DNA of 64,000 nucleotides from Dictyostelium discoideum (lineage: Eukaryota). The stretch covers positions 2,144,001 to 2,208,000 of the forward strand of contig CM000152.2 in assembly GCA_000004695.1 (NCBI GenBank). Reading direction: 5' to 3'. Position 1 is the first letter of the stretch. Each line of letters begins with the position of its first letter. This document shows positions 6,258 to 14,745 of the stretch, in pieces. The translations under genes and the position numbers were made by a program. Under the pieces are notes generated by a model. It saw only the letters and a list, made by a program, of their open reading frames with translations. It did no database searches and was not told the DNA's origin.

Positions 6258-8187
6258 ATGAAATCAATTAATAAAATAATAATTTTATCAGTTTTACTAT
6301 TTTGTACATTTGTTTGTGGGTATAATGATGAAGACCCCCTTGAAACTTGTATCTTTCCAGTAGGTGGCAATTCATACATTGATTTAACTTTATTAAAAGA
6401 AAAGTAATTTTAATTTATTGTTGTATTAAAAAAAAAAAAAAAAAAAAAAAAATGAAAAAAAAAAAAATTATTAATTTTTAATTTTTAAAATTAGTGCAAA
6501 TGGATATTCATACTCAGTAAATGACTTTGAATATTACTTTTCATTTTGTGAAGATTCATTGTTTTGCAATAAGGAAATGGGTCGCTCTGGAGTTGAAGCC
6601 TGTCAAGTAGGAAAACATGATGCTTTTTCCTATGAATTGGGTAGCACAATGACAGGTGAATATTCAATTAATAAGGAAAAGGGTGGCATGATATTAAGTT
6701 ATAATTCAACCAATAAAGAAACTTGCCAAGATGGTTACTATCGTAGTAATACCTTTTTCTTACAATGTACTCAAAATCAAACATTTTTAGTAACTTCTTT
6801 AACTGAAAACCCACCTTGTCATTATAATTTTGTTATTGAAACTTGTAATTATCATTAATGTATATATTTTTTTCTTTTCTTTATTTTCTTTTCTACTAAC
6901 TTTCTTATTTTTTTTCTTTTCTTTATTTTCTTTATAACTAACTTTTTTTTCTTTCTTTAGCTGCTGCTTGCCAAATTACGCCAACTCCATCGCCAACTCA
7001 ATCACCAACTCCATCACCAACTCAATCACCAACCCAATCACCAACCCAATCACCAACTCCATCACCAACTCCATCACCAACTCCATCACCAACCCAATCA
7101 CCAACCCAATCACCAACCCAATCACCAACACCATCTCCAACTCAATCACCAACTCAATCTCCAACTCCATCACCAACTCCATCACCAACTCCATCCCCAA
7201 CTCCATCCCCAACCCCATCCCCAACTCAATCCCCAACTCAGTCACCAACCCAATCTCCAACTCCATCACCAACTCAATCTCCAACTCCATCTCCAACTCA
7301 ATCCCCAACTCAGTCACCAACCCAATCACCAACTCCATCACCAACTCCATCACCAACCCATTCGCCAACTCAATCTCCAACTCATTCACCAACTCAATCT
7401 CCAACTCATTCACCAACTCAATCACCAACCCATTCACCAACTCAATCACCAACCCATTCGCCAACTCAATCTCCAACCCAATCTCCAACTCAATCTCCAA
7501 CACCAACACCACCAACACCATTACCAATACCAAAATCTTGCATTTTCGAATCTGGAAAAAATTCTTTAGATTTAACTGGTTTAATATCAAATGACTATTA
7601 TGGTCATATTTATTATGATAATTCAACAGATTCAGAATACTTTTTCAATTTCTGTGAAACTGTAAAGTATTGCTCAGATATCGTTAATTCAGATCTTCAA
7701 TCTTGCCAAAAAAAAGGTGCTTATGAATTTGAACTTTCATTTGTGGACTCTGGTAAATATATTTCAACAAGAAAGGGATTGGAATTATATTATAATTCTG
7801 ATCAATATTTATGGTGTAATGGAAATTCTCAAAAATCTACAGTTTATATTATTAACTGTAACCAAAATTACACATTTGAAATTGTTGATTTCGTTAATAG
7901 TGATAACTGCACTTACACCTTCACCATTGAAAGTAGTTATGTTTGTGCTAATTCTAATCCAACACCATCTCCATCTCCGACTATATCCCCAACACCAACT
8001 CCATCACCAATGGAATCATGTATTTTCCCATTTGGACCTACTTCAAATAGCGCTTTAAACCTTTCACCTCTTAAAAATAACACTGATGGTTATATGTATT
8101 ACAATCAACAATTGAATATTCAAGTATGTATTTTTAAAATTGCAATAATTATATTAATGTTTTATATATTTTTATTAAAATTTTTTT

Positions 8188-8221
<34 letters not shown>

Positions 8222-8592
8222 TATAAAAATAGTTTTATTTTGGAATTTGTGAATCAAGTACATTTTGTGAACAATTAACTGGTCAAACTGATGTTGAATC
8301 TTGTGGAGCTACTGGTGCATCAGGTTTTACAGATAGTTATGTGTTTGGATCATTAAACTCATCAACATATTCATTCAATCCTGAAGGAATTACACTTTAT
8401 TATAATTATACTGGTTCTAATTCCCTATGTTCACAATCCAATTATTCATCTGTTTCAATTCAATTTATATGCAGTTCAACTTCTGACTTTAATATAATTA
8501 ATGTTTCTAATGTTGGTGATTGTCAATATTCATTTATCATTCAAACATTTTATGCATGTGTAAGACAATTATCAAAAATTTTAATTAATTGA
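6258..8592 (+). CDS. Secreted protein with 3-4 cysteine-rich MRH-like (mannose-6-phosphate receptor homology-like) domains and a Pro/Thr/Ser/Gln mucin linker; 4 exons: 6258..6403, 6495..6844, 6961..8123, 8233..8592
   Basis: A signal peptide is encoded ([21 protein letters not shown]). Introns are 6404-6494 (GTAATT..TTAG), 6845-6960 (T-rich, contains CTAAC twice) and 8124-8232 (GTATGT..ATAG). Phases are consistent and the total is 2019 nt. Domains repeat a pattern YxY...FxYYFxFCE...C...C...YxFxIxxxxxC (e.g. [30 protein letters not shown]). Exon 3 begins with a roughly 190-aa (SPTQ/SPTP)n linker. Confidence 0.55.
6968..7530 (+). repeat. Coding tandem repeat (12-nt units tcaccaactcaa/tcaccaactcca) encoding an (SPTQ/SPTP)n mucin-like linker inside the MRH-like gene
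   Basis: About 45 imperfect direct repeats are visible in the sequence. All three plus-strand frames are open across it; only the frame giving [11 protein letters not shown] connects to the flanking exons. Confidence 0.8.
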
Positions 8593-8740
8593 AATTAAAT
8601 GTTTAATTTTTAAAAAACTATTAAATAATAAATTCTTTTTGATTTTTTTTGTAAGATTTATTTTATTTTTTATTATTATTATTTTTTTTTTTTTTTAAAG
8701 ATATGTATAAAATATTAATTATTTAATTTTAATTTAAACT

Positions 8741-9830
8741 TTAAAATTGCCCTAGTACAATTTATTAAGTAGAGTCGAGTAAAAGAGCTTTTCATCTTTA
8801 GATGGTTTGTCGATATGCAAATCCACCCAGATGTTATGAATTATTAATTCCAAAATGTTTCTATATGTGAAGGTTCAGGATAGGTCATATTTTACACATT
8901 TATATCCCATTTGTAACAAGATCTCAAAAATATCTTGTTAATACTAATATTTATTTAATTTTATGAAATGTTCTAAACAGAACATTTAAAAATAACTATT
9001 AATATTGAAATAATAATTCAATATTAATTATTACTAACTTAATTTATTTTAATAAATTGTTTCATTTATAATAAACTCACACAATTTAAACTACAATATT
9101 ATATTATTTTAATTTAATTATTATTTTCTCTTTTAATTAAATTATTTTTAATTTTATATTATTATTTTATATGGTGATTTTGTGTGTGGATCTAACCCTA
9201 TCGGCCGAGGTTGGAGTAGTTAACAGATTTGGGTTCGCTCAAAGCTAAGGACTATAAAAGGAAAACTAGGTTTCTAATTCAACCTCAGTAATAAATATAT
9301 ACAAATAATAAAAACACGATAGGGCTACGGTCATTAATTAATTTTGCGTACATTTATTTCTTAAATAATTAATCATTTACTTTAATAATAATAGAATAAA
9401 TAAATAATCAAATTTTATTAAATAATTTATTTTAAGAGAATGTCAACTAATAATAACGAAGATATTGATAATGATGAATTGCAACAGGATAATGAGGAAC
9501 AACAACAACCACAGGTATCAACATTCAGTGAACAGCAACGTCAGATAAGGGAACAGCAGCAGGTAAAAGATAAACAAAATCAACTTCTTCAACAACACAT
9601 TCAATTAATAAATCAACAATCTCAACAACAATTAAATAATCATTCGACACCACCATCATCACCCAACATTACAACACCAATAACTTCAGCAGCAATAACC
9701 AACACAATAAAGAAATCATTAGGAAAAATTAACACTGATGATACCGACCACCAGTTGTTACACCATTCAAAGTATTCTTGGTTAAATCAAAGATTTGGGT
9801 ATAGTCTATATTAACCTCATGACTTCTTCA
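8741..9830. mobile_element. Repetitive/mobile-element-associated segment of uncertain identity, adjacent to the retrotransposon remnant
   Basis: There is an abrupt rise in GC content relative to the flanking host DNA. A perfect 11-bp hairpin tgtaacaagat-N7-atcttgttaa lies at about 8919-8947, and an inverted repeat accctatcg / cgatagggct lies at about 9196 / 9318. The 124-aa Q-rich ORF 9440-9814 (+) uses CAG codons that are atypical of host genes. The segment sits between a host gene 3' end and the minus-strand retroelement ORFs. Confidence 0.3.
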
Positions 9831-10221
9831 TATTTGGTGAGATTTTTGATGTGATTCTGTTTGGAAATTTATTGTTGGGTCTAACTCTTTATTGGGTCCA
9901 ATGTTTTCTGCGAACTGTTTCAATGGATATGAAAGTTTTTCAATATGTGAGGTTGTATAAATTCTAATTTTTTCTTTTTTTTTTTTTTTTTTTGAATATT
10001 GGATTAACAAGATTGATATATGTCCATCTGTGTTAATACGAGTTTTTATTTAATATTTATTTATAGGCTTATCATTTAAGCTGAAGGGTTATTTTAATCA
10101 TATGAATTGATCAAAAGATATAATATTTGGGAGAGATGATTCTGGAATACAATAGTAATTAGCTGTTGTTTTTCTTAGCTTGATCGTTGAGGTGAGAAGG
10201 ATCTTAGGATCTTTGAAGTTA

Positions 10222-11037
10222 TTATGGTCTTTTGCTGATAGAGTTATGGTTGGATGACAGCTCCCTTGAATAATCGTTAAGTAGGAAGTCTATTTTCTTA
10301 AGCATTATGCTTGAGAGGATTGAGGATTTTTTTAATCTCCATCTGCGCTTGTTCATCTGTATGTTGGGTAGAGTGAAAGTGGTTGATAGGAAGTTGTGAT
10401 CTGATAGAGGTATGTCGTTAATTTTTGGGGGGATTAGGTTCCTTAAGTATAATTGGCTGTAGTTGATTAAGCTATTGTTAAGGTATATTCTGTCTAGTCT
10501 CCTTTCCAAGATTCTTGTGAGGTTATGTATCGTTCTTGAGAAGGTGGGTCTTTTATTTAGTTGGTCCATATCCATTAGGTTATTTGAAATTCTGATGGCT
10601 TCGATTACTGTGGCCATCTCATCTGGGGATTGTGTTGTCAAGTTGCCTTGGTCATCATTTGATGTGTGATTGTCATTGAAGTCTAAACAGTTGAAGTCGC
10701 CTGCTATGATGTCGATGTTTTTATTAGGGTTAGACGTTAGGTTGTGGTATTGGTTGTTGAAGTGTTTGTTTAGTGTTGAAGCTAGTGTTTTTCTTTTATC
10801 AGGTTGGGCCGGGGCGTATATGGCCAAGATTCTCGTTGTGGTATCTTTTATTAGAATGTCTGATATTATTAGTCTACCTTCTATTATGAATATTGGTGAG
10901 AGTTTTATGTTTTGGTTGTTGTGGTTTAGTATTCCTATTCCGTTGCCTCTGTTGGTTGCGCTAATGATGGAGCCAGGAAATAGCTGGTGTGCTTGTGTTG
11001 CGTCGGCGTTGAGTTCATTGACTATGGTTAGTGCCAA
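10222..11037 (-). CDS. Retrotransposon ORF2 fragment: apurinic/apyrimidinic-like endonuclease (EEP) domain, truncated before the reverse transcriptase
   Basis: It carries ILAIYAPAQP ... IIAGDFNCLDFND ... RLDRIYLNNSL ... IPLSDHNFL motifs typical of L1-type EN domains. The ORF terminates at 10222 and no RT motifs follow. Confidence 0.55.
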   Translation of the reverse strand: MALTIVNELNADATQAHQLFPGSIISATNRGNGIGILNHNNQNIKLSPIFIIEGRLIISDILIKDTTTRILAIYAPAQPDKRKTLASTLNKHFNNQYHNLTSNPNKNIDIIAGDFNCLDFNDNHTSNDDQGNLTTQSPDEMATVIEAIRISNNLMDMDQLNKRPTFSRTIHNLTRILERRLDRIYLNNSLINYSQLYLRNLIPPKINDIPLSDHNFLSTTFTLPNIQMNKRRWRLKKSSILSSIMLKKIDFLLNDYSRELSSNHNSISKRP

Positions 11038-11141
11038 TGAGTTTGGGGGGGATTGGGATTTGATAAAGTCTGTTTTGTTTTTGAAGGAGGTGTCAGTGCC
11101 CCAACCTCTGACATTCTATTGGTTGATTTTGATTACTACTA

Positions 11142-12392
11142 TTATGAGATGATATCGATCTCCTCTTGGGAGTCGTATAGCTGCGGTTTGGATGGTGAAG
11201 GGTAGATACTCTCTATGAAGCTCTCAATGATTCCTTTCCTTTCTTTTTTGACAGGTGTCTTATGGGTGGATGGGATGTAAGGGTTGCTTCTGTTTATTGT
11301 TGGTGAGAGTTGGTTGACTTCATTGTTTGAGTGGATTTCCTCGTTCTTGCGTTTATGTGATGGAGGGATGTTTAGTGTCTTCTCTCTGTTTTCCGAGGAT
11401 GAATGGATGTTAGTGCTCGTTTTGTTGGCATTGTCTTTTTGGATGGCGTTGGATGTTGTGGTAGTGGTTGTGGTGGGTTTGACAGATTGAGATTCTGCTG
11501 GGTTTTTGGGGGGAAGAGGTAGAGATGACTTTTTTGCTTGGGCTTTTTTCTCTTGGGTTGATTGTTTATCAGACTGATTGTTTGCTGGGTTGTTTGTTTG
11601 TTGTTGTGGTTTTGGTTGAGAGGATTTGATTGCTATCCTGTTTTGGGTGTTAGGAGGATCTGTCATCTCATCTTCTGATGGTTCCTCCGTGTTGTTTGTC
11701 TCTACTTTCTTGTTTTTCTTTTGGGAGGAGTAGGTTTTGGTGGCCGTTCTGATGGTAAAGTTTGCGATTTCTGTAATGTGTTGGCCAGATTTCATTTGAT
11801 CGCCTATTTGGCATTCTATTAGACCGAATACTATGAGGTGGTCGGTGGAGTATGGAGTATTGTATATTGCATAGGGTATTTCTTCTGCAAAGGCAGTTTT
11901 GATGAGGGCGTCCACTATTCCTGCCTTTTCTCTGGGAATTCTTACTCTTCCTGTGAGGACGTGGAAGTCTCTACTGGAGGTGATGAAGGTTCCCAATTTG
12001 CTTCTATCTCTAATGATATTTAGGAGAGATTGTTCGTTTTTAATCATCAGGTGGATCGTTTTTCTAGTTCCTTTGCCTATGTATATCTTGTCGATTGGGA
12101 TATCGTAGTTTGAGAGTGTTTTTCTCATTTCTTCTAACCCCTTGAGATCCATTTTGGGGAATTCGAGTGTAATTGGGTAGAATCCGTTGTTCTTCTCGTA
12201 GGTTGAGAGCGCAGTCATGTTCAATATGGTCTCGCAGTATTTGGAGATGTCTTTGAGGCCTATTGATAGTTTGGGGTAGGTCTCCTTTATCTCTGCTGTT
12301 TTTGTGGAGAATTCCTTAATGAAGTTCTCCGATGCCTCGTCCATATGGGTGGAGGGTTTGGCCATTTTAGCCGCGTCTGCGTAGGAATTCAT
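11142..12392 (-). CDS. Retrotransposon ORF1 protein (416 aa)
   Basis: Intact ORF with non-host codon usage. Its C-terminal half is basic, Lys/Pro/Thr-rich. It lies immediately 5' of the APE ORF on the same strand. Confidence 0.5.
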   Translation of the reverse strand: MNSYADAAKMAKPSTHMDEASENFIKEFSTKTAEIKETYPKLSIGLKDISKYCETILNMTALSTYEKNNGFYPITLEFPKMDLKGLEEMRKTLSNYDIPIDKIYIGKGTRKTIHLMIKNEQSLLNIIRDRSKLGTFITSSRDFHVLTGRVRIPREKAGIVDALIKTAFAEEIPYAIYNTPYSTDHLIVFGLIECQIGDQMKSGQHITEIANFTIRTATKTYSSQKKNKKVETNNTEEPSEDEMTDPPNTQNRIAIKSSQPKPQQQTNNPANNQSDKQSTQEKKAQAKKSSLPLPPKNPAESQSVKPTTTTTTTSNAIQKDNANKTSTNIHSSSENREKTLNIPPSHKRKNEEIHSNNEVNQLSPTINRSNPYIPSTHKTPVKKERKGIIESFIESIYPSPSKPQLYDSQEEIDIIS

Positions 12393-12611
12393 CTCGATGA
12401 GATTCCTTTGAATCGGCGATTTGGTAAGTTAGATCTGTAGATCGTGGTGGATTGGTGATTTTTTTTTGAAAGATTGTTTAAAATTGACCGAGATTAAGGA
12501 TAGAAAAGGATGAATTACTTTTCACGTGTATCTTGTATCCTCTTGATCGCGGTACGAAAATTCCTAATTTTTTCTTACAATTTCAACCAATTTTAAACTG
12601 TCACCCTAAGT

Positions 12612-12624
12612 GGGATTCGAACCC
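12612..12624 (-). promoter_or_regulatory. External B box (ex-B, TFIIIC-binding B-box copy) downstream of tRNA-Glu
   Basis: On the minus strand it reads AAGGGTTCGAATCCCAC, a near-perfect B-box consensus GGTTCGAATCC. It lies about 30-40 bp 3' of the tRNA with no matching A box or cloverleaf around it. That arrangement is known for Dictyostelium tRNA genes. Confidence 0.45.
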
Positions 12625-12653
12625 TTAATCTAATTTTGGTCGGAATAAAAACC

Positions 12654-12725
12654 CTCCCCATTCGGGAATCGAACCCGAGGTACCAGTGTGAAAGACTAGA
12701 GTGTTACCGACTACACCAATGAGGA
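12654..12725 (-). tRNA. tRNA-Glu (anticodon UUC)
   Basis: The minus strand reads TCCTCAT TG GTGT AGTCGGTAA CAC T CTAGT CTTTCAC ACTGG TACC TCGGG TTCGATT CCCGA ATGGGGA G. It has a 7-bp acceptor stem with one G-U pair, D and anticodon stems, anticodon loop C-U-UUC-A-C, and a T-loop TTCGATT. Confidence 0.8.
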
Positions 12726-13077
12726 ATTGGATGAAATTTCAATTTTTTTAGTAAAAAATATTTATAAAAAAAAAATTTATATGGAAAATAAAATACCATT
12801 AAAACAAAAACCACAAAAAACAACAAAGCCAACAAAAAAATAAACAACAAAAACCAACAACATCCTAAGGCTGTTTAAAAACTAGGCCCTCTATTAACAA
12901 AACCATAAATAAAATGACAACAAGTAGAATCAACAAACAATTGCATTAACCAATTCAAAAAAAAAAAATTCCAAAAATAAAATATTTCAAAATTACAATT
13001 ACAATTTTAAAATATACTAATTTGATAAAATATTTTATTTAAAAATAAAATCTATTAAATTTATGGTTTTAGGAAAA

Positions 13078-14745
13078 TTAATAATGAATGAATGATAATG
13101 CAATACCAATGAAGAACAATGAAATAAAATTAAAAGACTTTAAATAAGAGGAATCACTAGTTGAACCATCAGTAGTACTTGAAGAAGAAACAGTAAATGG
13201 TTGTTTACCAGTAGTTGAACCTCCAGTAGCAGAGCCACCGGTTGTACTTGATTGAGAGGATGATGTAGGGAATGATGTTGTACCAGTACTGGTACCATCA
13301 GCATTACCACAAAAGTTTGGAATATTACATTTGTTACAAGTGACTGATATTTGAGAAGTTGTACCCATAAAACTAATACCACTAATATTAACAAAACTTG
13401 ATGAACAAGATATTGCTGGTGGACCACTCATTAAACCAATGGTATTATTTGTAATGAAAACATTTGAACCTTGAGTATTAACCAAATATCCATCACATTG
13501 AGTACTTGAATTCAATGATGATATAGTAGATGTTTGGATGGTTAAAGTTGAATTAACAATATAAACTAAACCACCACTATTAAAAGCAGAATTTGATTGG
13601 ATAAACTTTGAATTACTAAAATTCAATGGAGTATTAATTGAATAAACTACACCACCACTATTTGATGCATAACTTCCACTAAAACTACAATTATTAATAT
13701 TACTAAGTGTTGGTTGGAATTGTCCAATATTTGATGCATATATTGAGCCACCATTTTTGGAATAACAATAGTTAAATTGACAATTTTGAAAACTAAAATA
13801 ATTACTATCAGTTGTAGTTAATGATGTCAATATACTTCCAGATACTGATGATTCACAATTTGAGAAACCTGTACCATATGATTTAAATGTTGTATCTTGA
13901 ATTTTAAATACACCATATTGAGTTGCAACAGATCCAAAATTACTATATGAAAGAGTAATGAAACTATTAATTGATGATATAAAACTTTGAGCCGATATAT
14001 TGGAAGTTGTTAAACCTTGTAAAGTGATTGTAGTTGCCGATATAGAAATTACTGGGAAACTATTATTAATTCCACTAGATCCTGTGAAATATGAATTTGT
14101 AATTGATATACTAGCTGGATAAGTTTTAGTTACATTTGACCAAACATTAATCAATGACACATTTTGAATATTTGTTGAGAAATTACTAAAATTACAACCC
14201 TCAAATTCAATACTTGCAACTGATAAGTTTACAATTACATTAATGATTGGTGATGTACAATCTTGGAATGTAATATCATAAATTGATACACCAGTTGTAA
14301 TACCATTACCACTACCAACAACAACATTATTAATACTTTCATCTACATTAATCAATGGTAAATTATTTTTATTTCCACCTTTAACAATTACATTGGTTGA
14401 ACCTTGAGTAAATGATGCAATTCCAATGGTTTTACCAAATACTTGAATACTATTATTTGAGAAATCATAAATACCATCAACTAATAAAAATCCAACTTGA
14501 CTTACATCTCCAGAAAGTGTATTTGCATAATTTAATGCATCAGCCATATTATTACATGAAAATGAAATATTACCTCCACATTCTCCACCAACTGGATAAA
14601 TATTAAATTTATTTGAATCAACTATTAAATTTAATAAAGAATTATTGGTATCGTAAATATTATCTTTATTTGATTTTACTTTAATGCAAAAACAAAAATT
14701 AATAAATAAAAATGATATTAAAAGAGTATTTATTAATTTATTCAT
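13078..14745 (-). CDS. Secreted or GPI-anchored cell-surface protein with parallel beta-helix (pectate-lyase-like, PbH1) repeats and a Ser/Thr-rich stalk
   Basis: It has an N-terminal signal peptide (MNKLINTLLISFLFINFCFC). Repeated GGSIYA / GGVVYS / GGLVYIVNS motifs are spaced about 22-25 aa apart and are Asn/Ser/Thr-rich. The C-terminal TTGGSATGGSTTG stalk is followed by a hydrophobic tail (FISLFFIGIALSFIHY), consistent with a GPI signal. Single exon. Confidence 0.55.
   Translation of the reverse strand: MNKLINTLLISFLFINFCFCIKVKSNKDNIYDTNNSLLNLIVDSNKFNIYPVGGECGGNISFSCNNMADALNYANTLSGDVSQVGFLLVDGIYDFSNNSIQVFGKTIGIASFTQGSTNVIVKGGNKNNLPLINVDESINNVVVGSGNGITTGVSIYDITFQDCTSPIINVIVNLSVASIEFEGCNFSNFSTNIQNVSLINVWSNVTKTYPASISITNSYFTGSSGINNSFPVISISATTITLQGLTTSNISAQSFISSINSFITLSYSNFGSVATQYGVFKIQDTTFKSYGTGFSNCESSVSGSILTSLTTTDSNYFSFQNCQFNYCYSKNGGSIYASNIGQFQPTLSNINNCSFSGSYASNSGGVVYSINTPLNFSNSKFIQSNSAFNSGGLVYIVNSTLTIQTSTISSLNSSTQCDGYLVNTQGSNVFITNNTIGLMSGPPAISCSSSFVNISGISFMGTTSQISVTCNKCNIPNFCGNADGTSTGTTSFPTSSSQSSTTGGSATGGSTTGKQPFTVSSSSTTDGSTSDSSYLKSFNFISLFFIGIALSFIHY

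Follow-up and report, generated by a model that had tools for sequence, protein, structure and literature searches.

How did the DNA on the downstream side of a tRNA-Glu(UUC) gene of Dictyostelium discoideum come to hold both a retroelement devoid of reverse transcriptase and a second, structurally unlike block of sequence? The gene lies in a stretch of 64,000 nucleotides (assembly GCA_000004695.1, contig CM000152.2, positions 2,144,001 to 2,208,000 of the forward strand), denoted here as the window, from whose first letter positions are counted. The original prediction, made from the letters alone, proposed a nested or decayed cluster of tRNA-targeted retrotransposons, in which an element in a TRE3-like position behind the tRNA gene suffered a deletion after its integration and was possibly joined by a second, nested insertion (8741-9830). 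The account favoured here is that two independent and unrelated transposon insertions, one of a TRE3 element and one of an 851-bp element with TG...CA ends, are found downstream of an ordinary tRNA-Glu gene and its external B box (ex-B), and the probability of this account as a whole is put at about 85%. The two insertions are adjacent, with neither nested in the other; their transposon classes differ, and only one of the two is tRNA-targeted.

Empty sites for both insertions

Evidence for this account comes from two other D. discoideum assemblies, whose syntenic loci (L010 in GCA_054859355.1 and L011 in GCA_054859385.1) were reached through the orthologues of the flanking gene. Both loci retain the tRNA-Glu gene and ex-B, both lack the segments 9975-12556 and 8912-9762, and both contain a single CCATT. 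Specifically, the empty alleles read ...ACATA-CCCATT-CAAAGTATTC..., while the window allele reads ...TATATC-CCATT-(TGTAACAAG...CAGTTGTTACA)-CCATT-CAAAGTATTC..., with the inserted unit in parentheses. In L010 and L011, sequence matching window position 12575 is followed by approximately 160-210 bp and then by sequence matching window position 8911. Both insertions are strain-polymorphic.

The empty-site comparison, which the original prediction had called for, also fixes the extent of the second unit exactly (Table 1). The interval 8741-9830, previously taken as one block, is composite: 8741-8911 and 9768-9958 are host DNA, and the inserted unit spans 8912-9762. The block turned out to be in part a family that is not tRNA-targeted and in part unique host sequence, the two outcomes named beforehand as speaking against a tRNA-targeted cluster. 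Of the target-site duplications expected near 12570 and at 8741, the first was found and the second was not, its partner lying at 9959-9974 instead.

Table 1. Features of the tRNA-Glu locus, with positions in the window
Feature	Positions	Strand	Basis or remark
Host DNA, downstream of a gene whose end is at 8592	8741-8906	.	89% in the alignment of 8346-8911 to both assemblies, with no break from the upstream gene
Target-site duplication CCATT, left copy	8907-8911	+	empty-site comparison
851-bp element, best read as non-autonomous and of cut-and-paste type	8912-9762	+	missing at both syntenic loci (L010, L011)
Segment of 105 bp inverted relative to the 1.16-1.2-kb copies	9082-9186	+	adjoins the 275-bp deletion
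Q-rich open reading frame, 124 residues	9440-9814	+	first 108 codons in the element, last 16 and stop in the host flank (52 nt)
Target-site duplication CCATT, right copy	9763-9767	+	empty-site comparison
Host intergenic DNA between the insertions, 191 bp	9768-9958	.	about 76% to L011; by eye to L010
TRE3 target-site duplication, 3' copy GAAAAAATTAGAATTT	9959-9974	-	read from sequence
Internally deleted TRE3 non-LTR retrotransposon without reverse transcriptase	9975-12556	-	blastn against the full-length copy in L001
ORF2 remnant with APE endonuclease domain	10222-11160	-	translation; PF03372, E = 2.3e-5
Junction of the 2,641-bp internal deletion	10238-10245	-	blastn breakpoints
TRE3 ORF1, intact, 416 residues	11142-12392	-	list of open reading frames
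TRE3 5' untranslated region	12393-12556	-	
TRE3 target-site duplication, 5' copy GAAAAAATTAGGAATTTT	12557-12574	-	read from sequence
External B box (ex-B) GGTTCGAATCC	12613-12623	-	pattern search; no tRNA around it
tRNA-Glu(UUC) gene	12653-12726	-	ARAGORN; Rfam RF00005, 56.3 bits

The same locus was also found in GCA_054883475.1 (L002 and L003), and six short Logan contigs (L004-L009) carry the flanking gene and end within or near repeats. Between the window and L003 there are seven substitutions, all of them in the TRE3 copy (10941-11855) and none in 3.6 kb of flanks; they probably reflect how repeats were assembled or called in the consensus of two assemblies from near-identical strains.

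A TRE3 copy behind an ordinary tRNA gene

The tRNA-Glu gene is the single tRNA that ARAGORN finds in the 64 kb and the sole Rfam match, at a permissive threshold, in 8000-13500. It contains an internal B box, GGTTCGATTCC (12665-12675 in a B-box pattern search), and is followed just past its 3' end by a T5 terminator for RNA polymerase III (Pol III) at 12647-12651. Beyond this terminator, 29 nt past the end of the gene, lies ex-B, which fits the B-box consensus GGTTCGANNCC outside any tRNA; indeed, neither ARAGORN nor Rfam detects a second tRNA around it. The pattern GGTTCGAWNCC has two matches in the 64 kb, the internal B box and ex-B, when 0.03 would be expected. The tRNA sequence is 100% identical in the two other assemblies, where the flanks are 85-89% identical, and the ex-B core is kept there as GGGTTCGAAACCC and GGGTTCGAAGCCC, with the N position alone varying. 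According to a published report, about 80% of the tRNA genes of D. discoideum have an ex-B (PMC5911963), and the arrangement seen here is an ordinary one.

The retroelement lies on the same strand as the tRNA gene, is richer in GC than its surroundings and measures 2,582 bp including an A19 tail (9975-9993). Its 5' and 3' ends are both complete, the 3' untranslated region being kept, and it is flanked by a duplication of 16-18 bp, GAAAAAATTAG(G)AATTT, whose copies match apart from one extra G in 12557-12574. Counting from the 3' end of the tRNA, the duplication begins at 78 nt and the element at 96 nt, in the same orientation, and the first base of the element (12556) is 56 nt past ex-B. The copy is placed 38-57 nt beyond ex-B and 90-109 nt beyond the internal B box, and to judge from these distances either box could have served as the landmark, putatively bound by TFIIIC. 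TRE3 elements are known to insert 40-150 bp downstream of tRNA genes and in an orientation matching theirs, with the internal or the external B box as their target (PMC5911963; for the ranges, see PMC5006619, Table 1).

The element was compared with a full-length relative, reached through an ORF1 homologue, in locus L001 (6838-12060; 5,223 bp plus an A32 tail), which is found downstream of a tRNA-Ser(AGA) gene, again in the same orientation. The L001 copy encodes an ORF1 protein of 417 residues and an ORF2 protein of 1,234 residues with an APE domain (residues 8-253), RVT_1 (residues 524-771) and a C-terminal CCHC motif, CX2CX12HX4C. By blastn, window 12556-10238 matches L001 6838-9170 at 97.2%, and window 10245-9968 matches L001 11812-12087 at 97.8%. 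The part missing from the window, L001 9171-11811, corresponds approximately to ORF2 residues 306-1186 and includes the reverse transcriptase and the zinc finger; its junction, ...CCATAACTCTATCAGCAAAAGACC..., is set between the short direct repeats AACTCTAT and AACTTAT. The order of APE, reverse transcriptase and zinc finger that characterizes ORF2 of TRE3 is whole in L001, while the window copy keeps the -1 frame relative to ORF1 and the APE domain only. The ORF2 remnant carries an in-frame TAG early in the APE domain (11116-11118; INQ-stop-NVRG), where the full-length copy has Trp, and it ends, with its frame shifted, three codons past the deletion junction (...NHNSISKRP-stop). ORF1 gave nothing above the cut-offs in Pfam. 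It is 95% identical to a 417-residue D. discoideum protein, which together with the flanking gene identifies the window as D. discoideum, and has about 55 cluster members across five clusters. All database names of the related proteins read "hypothetical protein".

On this side of the locus most of what had been read from the sequence was borne out: the tRNA-Glu(UUC) on the minus strand, the ex-B with no tRNA around it, the GC-richer element on the same strand with ORF1 and APE and no reverse transcriptase, its oligo(A) and its TRE3-type position. The start of the element, placed about 45 bp past ex-B, has to be moved, to 56 nt.

That the 2.58-kb element is a TRE3 is firmly established. The consensus lengths of TRE3-A, TRE3-B and TRE3-C are 5,229, 5,279 and 4,734 bp, respectively (PMC5006619, Table 1), and the 5,223 bp plus A(n) of the L001 copy fit TRE3-A better than the other two, which makes assignment to TRE3-A (Tdd-3) probable, as judged by length and abundance. 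The element might instead belong to TRE3-B or another TRE3 family, given that the TRE3-B consensus is of similar length and that TRE3-B integrates in the same manner. This is unlikely, though not negligibly so, because the L001 copy before its tail differs by 6 bp from the TRE3-A consensus and by 56 bp from that of TRE3-B, because the number of ORF1 cluster members is that of an abundant family, as expected of the commonest TRE3, and because an old UniParc ORF2 record of 1,260 residues sits in the same 90% cluster. Assignment of the 2.6-kb element to TRE5-A.2 was also considered and rejected: the side of the tRNA gene and the orientation are wrong, and the element is 97% identical to one lying downstream of tRNA-Ser.

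Two further observations concern the 5' side of TRE3 copies. In most of them, (A)n-C or AAAAAC directly precedes CGTACCGCG, filling the interval from the duplication to where the alignment starts (L015 3550-3575, L016 3555-3565, L017 3555-3565, L001 6828-6837), and the window copy has no such stretch; either the true 5' end lies about 6 nt further out, which would make the window copy slightly truncated, or these are untemplated or variable nucleotides added at the 5' junction. In L001, the interval between tRNA-Ser(AGA) and the full-length TRE3 (6775-6837) contains a 40-bp fragment close to the 3' end of TRE3 (aagcct.ttaa.taaatattaaataaaactcgtatta), followed by A12, which looks like an earlier, nearly fully 5'-truncated TRE3 insertion, giving a tandem.

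The 851-bp element and its class

The second insertion has the ends TGTAACAA...TTGTTACA, starting with TG, ending with CA and forming an 8-bp terminal inverted repeat. No second copy was found within the window. Through its Q-rich open reading frame, three other complete copies were recovered, at L012 7164-8326, L013 1715-2911 and L014 7234-8190, with 5-bp duplications of their own (AGTTT, CATAT and AATTG, respectively). The ends are shared by three of the four complete copies; that in L013 has lost 6 nt just inside the left end and keeps TGTAAC and the right end. The end signature of the family is TGTAACAAGATCTC...CAGTTGTTACA. Further copies are found rearranged in L013 and partial in L017, and no tRNA gene lies within 8 kb of the L012-L014 copies. 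Complete copies range from 851 to 1,197 bp. Relative to the longer ones (1.16-1.2 kb), that of the window has lost 275 bp and carries an adjoining inverted segment, 9082-9186, which matches positions 547-448 of the L012 element on the minus strand at 94% (blastn).

Two parts of the sequence are conserved among copies. The left end contains subterminal hairpins (8914-8940 and 8966-8987; z = -4.3), which bears out the hairpins noted earlier in this block, and a GC-rich core (9187-9335) folds weakly better than its shuffles (z = -2.2), with no match to a known RNA family in Rfam at a permissive threshold. In this core and its equivalent in L012-L014, nested inverted repeats (CCCTATCG...CGATAGGG, GAGGTTG...CAACCTC and CAGATTTG...CAAATCTG) surround a TATAAAAGG motif.

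The plus-strand Q-rich reading frame is present as described; it starts inside the inserted unit and runs on into the host flank. No Pfam match reaches the cut-off, and its only relatives are three short proteins found in other copies of the element. Because the frame has no stop inside the element, the C-terminus of the product varies with the insertion site, the product having 124 residues here and 143 in L012.

These features are best read as those of a non-autonomous cut-and-paste element. The published hallmarks of Tdd-4 and Tdd-5 (Ginger2/Tdd) are a 5-bp duplication and TGTNR termini, found there in 3.8-kb elements that have long inverted repeats and encode an integrase-like transposase (PMC2836005), and a DDE integrase-like transposase of this kind, provided by another element, is what most likely moves the 851-bp family. 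The element may be one of the small repeats already catalogued as DDT or thug (PMC5633606). Interpretation of 8741-9950 as a decayed TRE3 or Skipper-2 was discarded, since it contains no long minus-strand reading frame and is mostly host sequence or TG...CA element.

A different possibility is that the unit is the solo long terminal repeat (LTR) of an uncatalogued LTR retrotransposon, left by LTR-LTR recombination. The TG...CA termini, the short inverted repeat and the 5-bp duplication would fit Ty3/gypsy LTRs, a TATA-like motif in the unit could act as a promoter, and Bao et al. pointed out that Ginger termini resemble those of Gypsy LTRs (PMC2836005). However, the known D. discoideum LTRs, those of Skipper-1 (390 bp), Skipper-2 (208 bp) and DGLT-A (265 bp) (PMC5006619, Table 1), are, by length, far from 851-1,197 bp, all four complete copies are solitary with their own duplications, no pair flanking an interior occurs among six copies and fragments, and a reading frame open to the very end of the unit would be unusual for an LTR. 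A solo LTR is, on balance, quite unlikely.

The deletion as a trait of a TRE3 subfamily

The history of the TRE3 copy before it reached this locus can be approached through three other copies, in L015, L016 and L017, whose blastn breakpoints are identical to those of the window; for L015, the junction sequence itself is identical. The L016 copy lies 164 bp behind tRNA-Tyr(GTA) and the L017 copy 119 bp behind tRNA-Thr(AGT), both in the orientation of the tRNA and each with its own tail and flanking duplication. The L015 copy, which has flanks and a duplication of its own, is found among clustered transposon fragments, with the nearest predicted tRNA about 1.15 kb away. Identity is 99.2-99.5% among the four deleted copies and 96-98% between these and full-length copies; 49 shared diagnostic columns set the deleted copies apart, and the ...NHNSISKRP ending is found in four proteins from four contigs of one genome.

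As the identical junction and the 49 diagnostic differences recur at three other loci, the window element was already deleted when it inserted, and the loss of the reverse transcriptase after insertion, as originally proposed, has to be abandoned. The simplest reading of these sequences is that the deletion is a subfamily trait that arose once, in a master copy. By analogy with TRE5-A.2, an ORF2-deleted element for which trans mobilisation has been established experimentally (PMC3159450; PMC5633606), we infer that the shortened RNA was retrotransposed, with full-length elements providing the ORF2 protein in trans.

A shared junction might also have been spread by gene conversion, or by ectopic recombination between TRE3 copies already resident in the genome, and such conversion is possible in principle because TRE copies are numerous and similar. 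It is nevertheless highly improbable here: each copy with this junction carries a poly(A) tail and a flanking duplication of its own, three of the four follow different tRNA genes, and an identity that is uniform over the whole length, together with the diagnostic sites, points to a single young master lineage rather than to patchy conversion.

A second type of ORF2 deletion was noticed in proteins P0007 and P0022 of GCA_054883475.1, at two or more loci on two contigs, reading ...SLKYISA/ITLEYIKKAKDL... (...KYISA/ITLEYIKK...). More than one TRE3 derivative without reverse transcriptase may, accordingly, have been propagated.

A stronger formulation would hold that the 2.58-kb element represents an undescribed young subfamily ("TRE3-A.2"), amplified in trans behind several tRNA genes, and that the 0.85-1.2-kb family is an uncatalogued non-autonomous partner of Tdd whose reading frame is completed by the flank on which it lands. 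Taken in full, this proposal is tentative and leans towards the doubtful side.

Integration of the evidence

The model of a full-length TRE3 that lost its reverse transcriptase in place and was accompanied by a second tRNA-targeted retroelement is, in spite of a position and orientation that fit TRE3 and a region richer in GC than its surroundings, barely credible, because the deletion junction and the 49 differences recur at three other loci whose flanks differ, two of which follow different tRNA genes, and because the second block has TG...CA ends, a 5-bp duplication and no poly(A), lies 191 bp of host DNA away from the TRE3 and has other copies that are not near tRNA genes.

Several points weigh against the account of two unrelated insertions or against parts of it. 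The L010 and L011 assemblies are fairly divergent (85-90% in intergenic DNA) and show absence of the insertions, not recency. Solo LTRs, too, are recognised by TG...CA ends and a 5-bp duplication, features typical of Ty3/gypsy LTRs. The trans mobilisation of the deleted TRE3 form is deduced from the pattern of copies, and the "-A" label is a probable one, drawn from 5,223 bp plus A(n) against 5,229 bp and from abundance. As for the 851-bp family, a transposase partner was not found, the genome not having been scanned for one. Its perfect terminal inverted repeat is 8 bp long, compared with 260-297 bp in Tdd-4 and Tdd-5 (Bao et al., Table 2), and a local alignment of the 150-nt ends gave nothing beyond these 8 bp, whereas Ginger2/Tdd elements are marked by a long terminal inverted repeat (about 45-300 bp).

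With these points in mind, two independent insertions would have come about as follows. Briefly, a deletion would have arisen once in a TRE3 master copy, and the deleted form would have spread to further tRNA genes, helped in trans by the ORF2 protein of full-length elements, paralleling TRE5-A.2. At the present locus, targeting presumably took place through a Pol III factor on the B boxes, as the literature on TRE elements suggests, and the element probably inserted by target-primed reverse transcription, to which its A19 tail and its 16-18-bp duplication point. The 851-bp element would have inserted 191 bp further on, generating the 5-bp CCATT duplication, by means of a transposase putatively supplied by another element of the Tdd-4/Tdd-5 (Ginger2/Tdd) kind.

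The locus fits well-described Dictyostelium transposon biology and is, in that respect, already known: it is a textbook case of mobile-element survival in a gene-dense genome, and its main value is for annotation, as two classes of element are now separated, their boundaries and duplications are fixed and natural empty-site alleles are available for both. Of modest wider interest is the presence of at least one ORF2-deleted TRE3 derivative at several tRNA genes. If TRE3 tolerates mobilisation in trans as TRE5-A does, an assay of its targeting to the downstream side of tRNA genes with a marked "mini-TRE3" may be feasible.

Neighbouring sequences

On the other side of the tRNA-Glu gene, a single-exon gene on the minus strand (13078-14745) is identical to DDB_G0279497 of strain AX4. 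Between both genes, upstream of tRNA-Glu, the plus strand of 12800-12969 is A/C-rich with a strong AT skew and ends in A11 (about 12958-12968); this stretch, which is present in L010 too at 88%, might be the tail of a short 5'-truncated retroelement in a TRE5 position. L011 contains, about 40 bp upstream of its tRNA-Glu gene, two 96-bp direct repeats (12514-12609 and 12762-12857) that are 99% identical and 248 bp apart from start to start, in a region of which about 0.9 kb is lacking in the window. Structural polymorphism extends to the upstream side of the tRNA gene as well, which is possibly an old target of TRE5 or DGLT-A type elements.

At the opposite end, the gene that precedes the 851-bp element contains a strongly C-rich segment (6968-7594; GC about 0.5, GC skew about -0.93) encoding, on the plus strand, a long peptide repeat of (N/P)SITN type. 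Its product has 672 residues in the L002 annotation and 672, 730 and 768 residues in different strains, possibly through changes in repeat number.

Comparison with known systems

The ex-B of this locus shares with those of other Dictyostelium tRNA genes the consensus, the position past the terminator, the lack of a surrounding tRNA and the conservation between strains. It differs in its spacing to the internal B box, 52 bp from start to start, which is shorter than the approximately 100 bp quoted in a review.

The 851-bp family resembles Tdd-4 and Tdd-5 in its 5-bp duplication and its TGTNR...CA termini (PMC2836005). Besides the length of the terminal repeat, it departs from them in having 0.85-1.2 kb and no transposase, against 3.8 kb with a transposase, a comparison made by ends and size. 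With the DDT-S and thug elements it has in common that they are small, non-autonomous-looking repeats of the same genome, of which 1.5% is accounted for by the Tdd, DDT and Thug families combined (PMC5633606).

The TRE3 copy behaves as TRE3-A (Tdd-3) does in its location in the 40-150 bp range downstream of a tRNA gene whose orientation it shares, and in having ORF1, an ORF2 in the -1 frame that opens with APE, an oligo(A) tail and a target-site duplication; unlike TRE3-A, it is non-autonomous, as it lacks 2,641 bp of ORF2 and has an early in-frame stop in APE. The closest parallel to its history is TRE5-A.2, which likewise kept its untranslated regions and ORF1, lost most of ORF2 and is present at several tRNA genes (PMC3159450). 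TRE5-A.2 belongs to the TRE5 family and is found about 50 bp upstream of tRNA genes in the opposite orientation, whereas the window copy lies downstream in the same orientation; the deleted TRE3 form, whose mobilisation in trans is put forward here from the pattern of its copies, also differs from TRE5-A.2 in keeping the APE domain.

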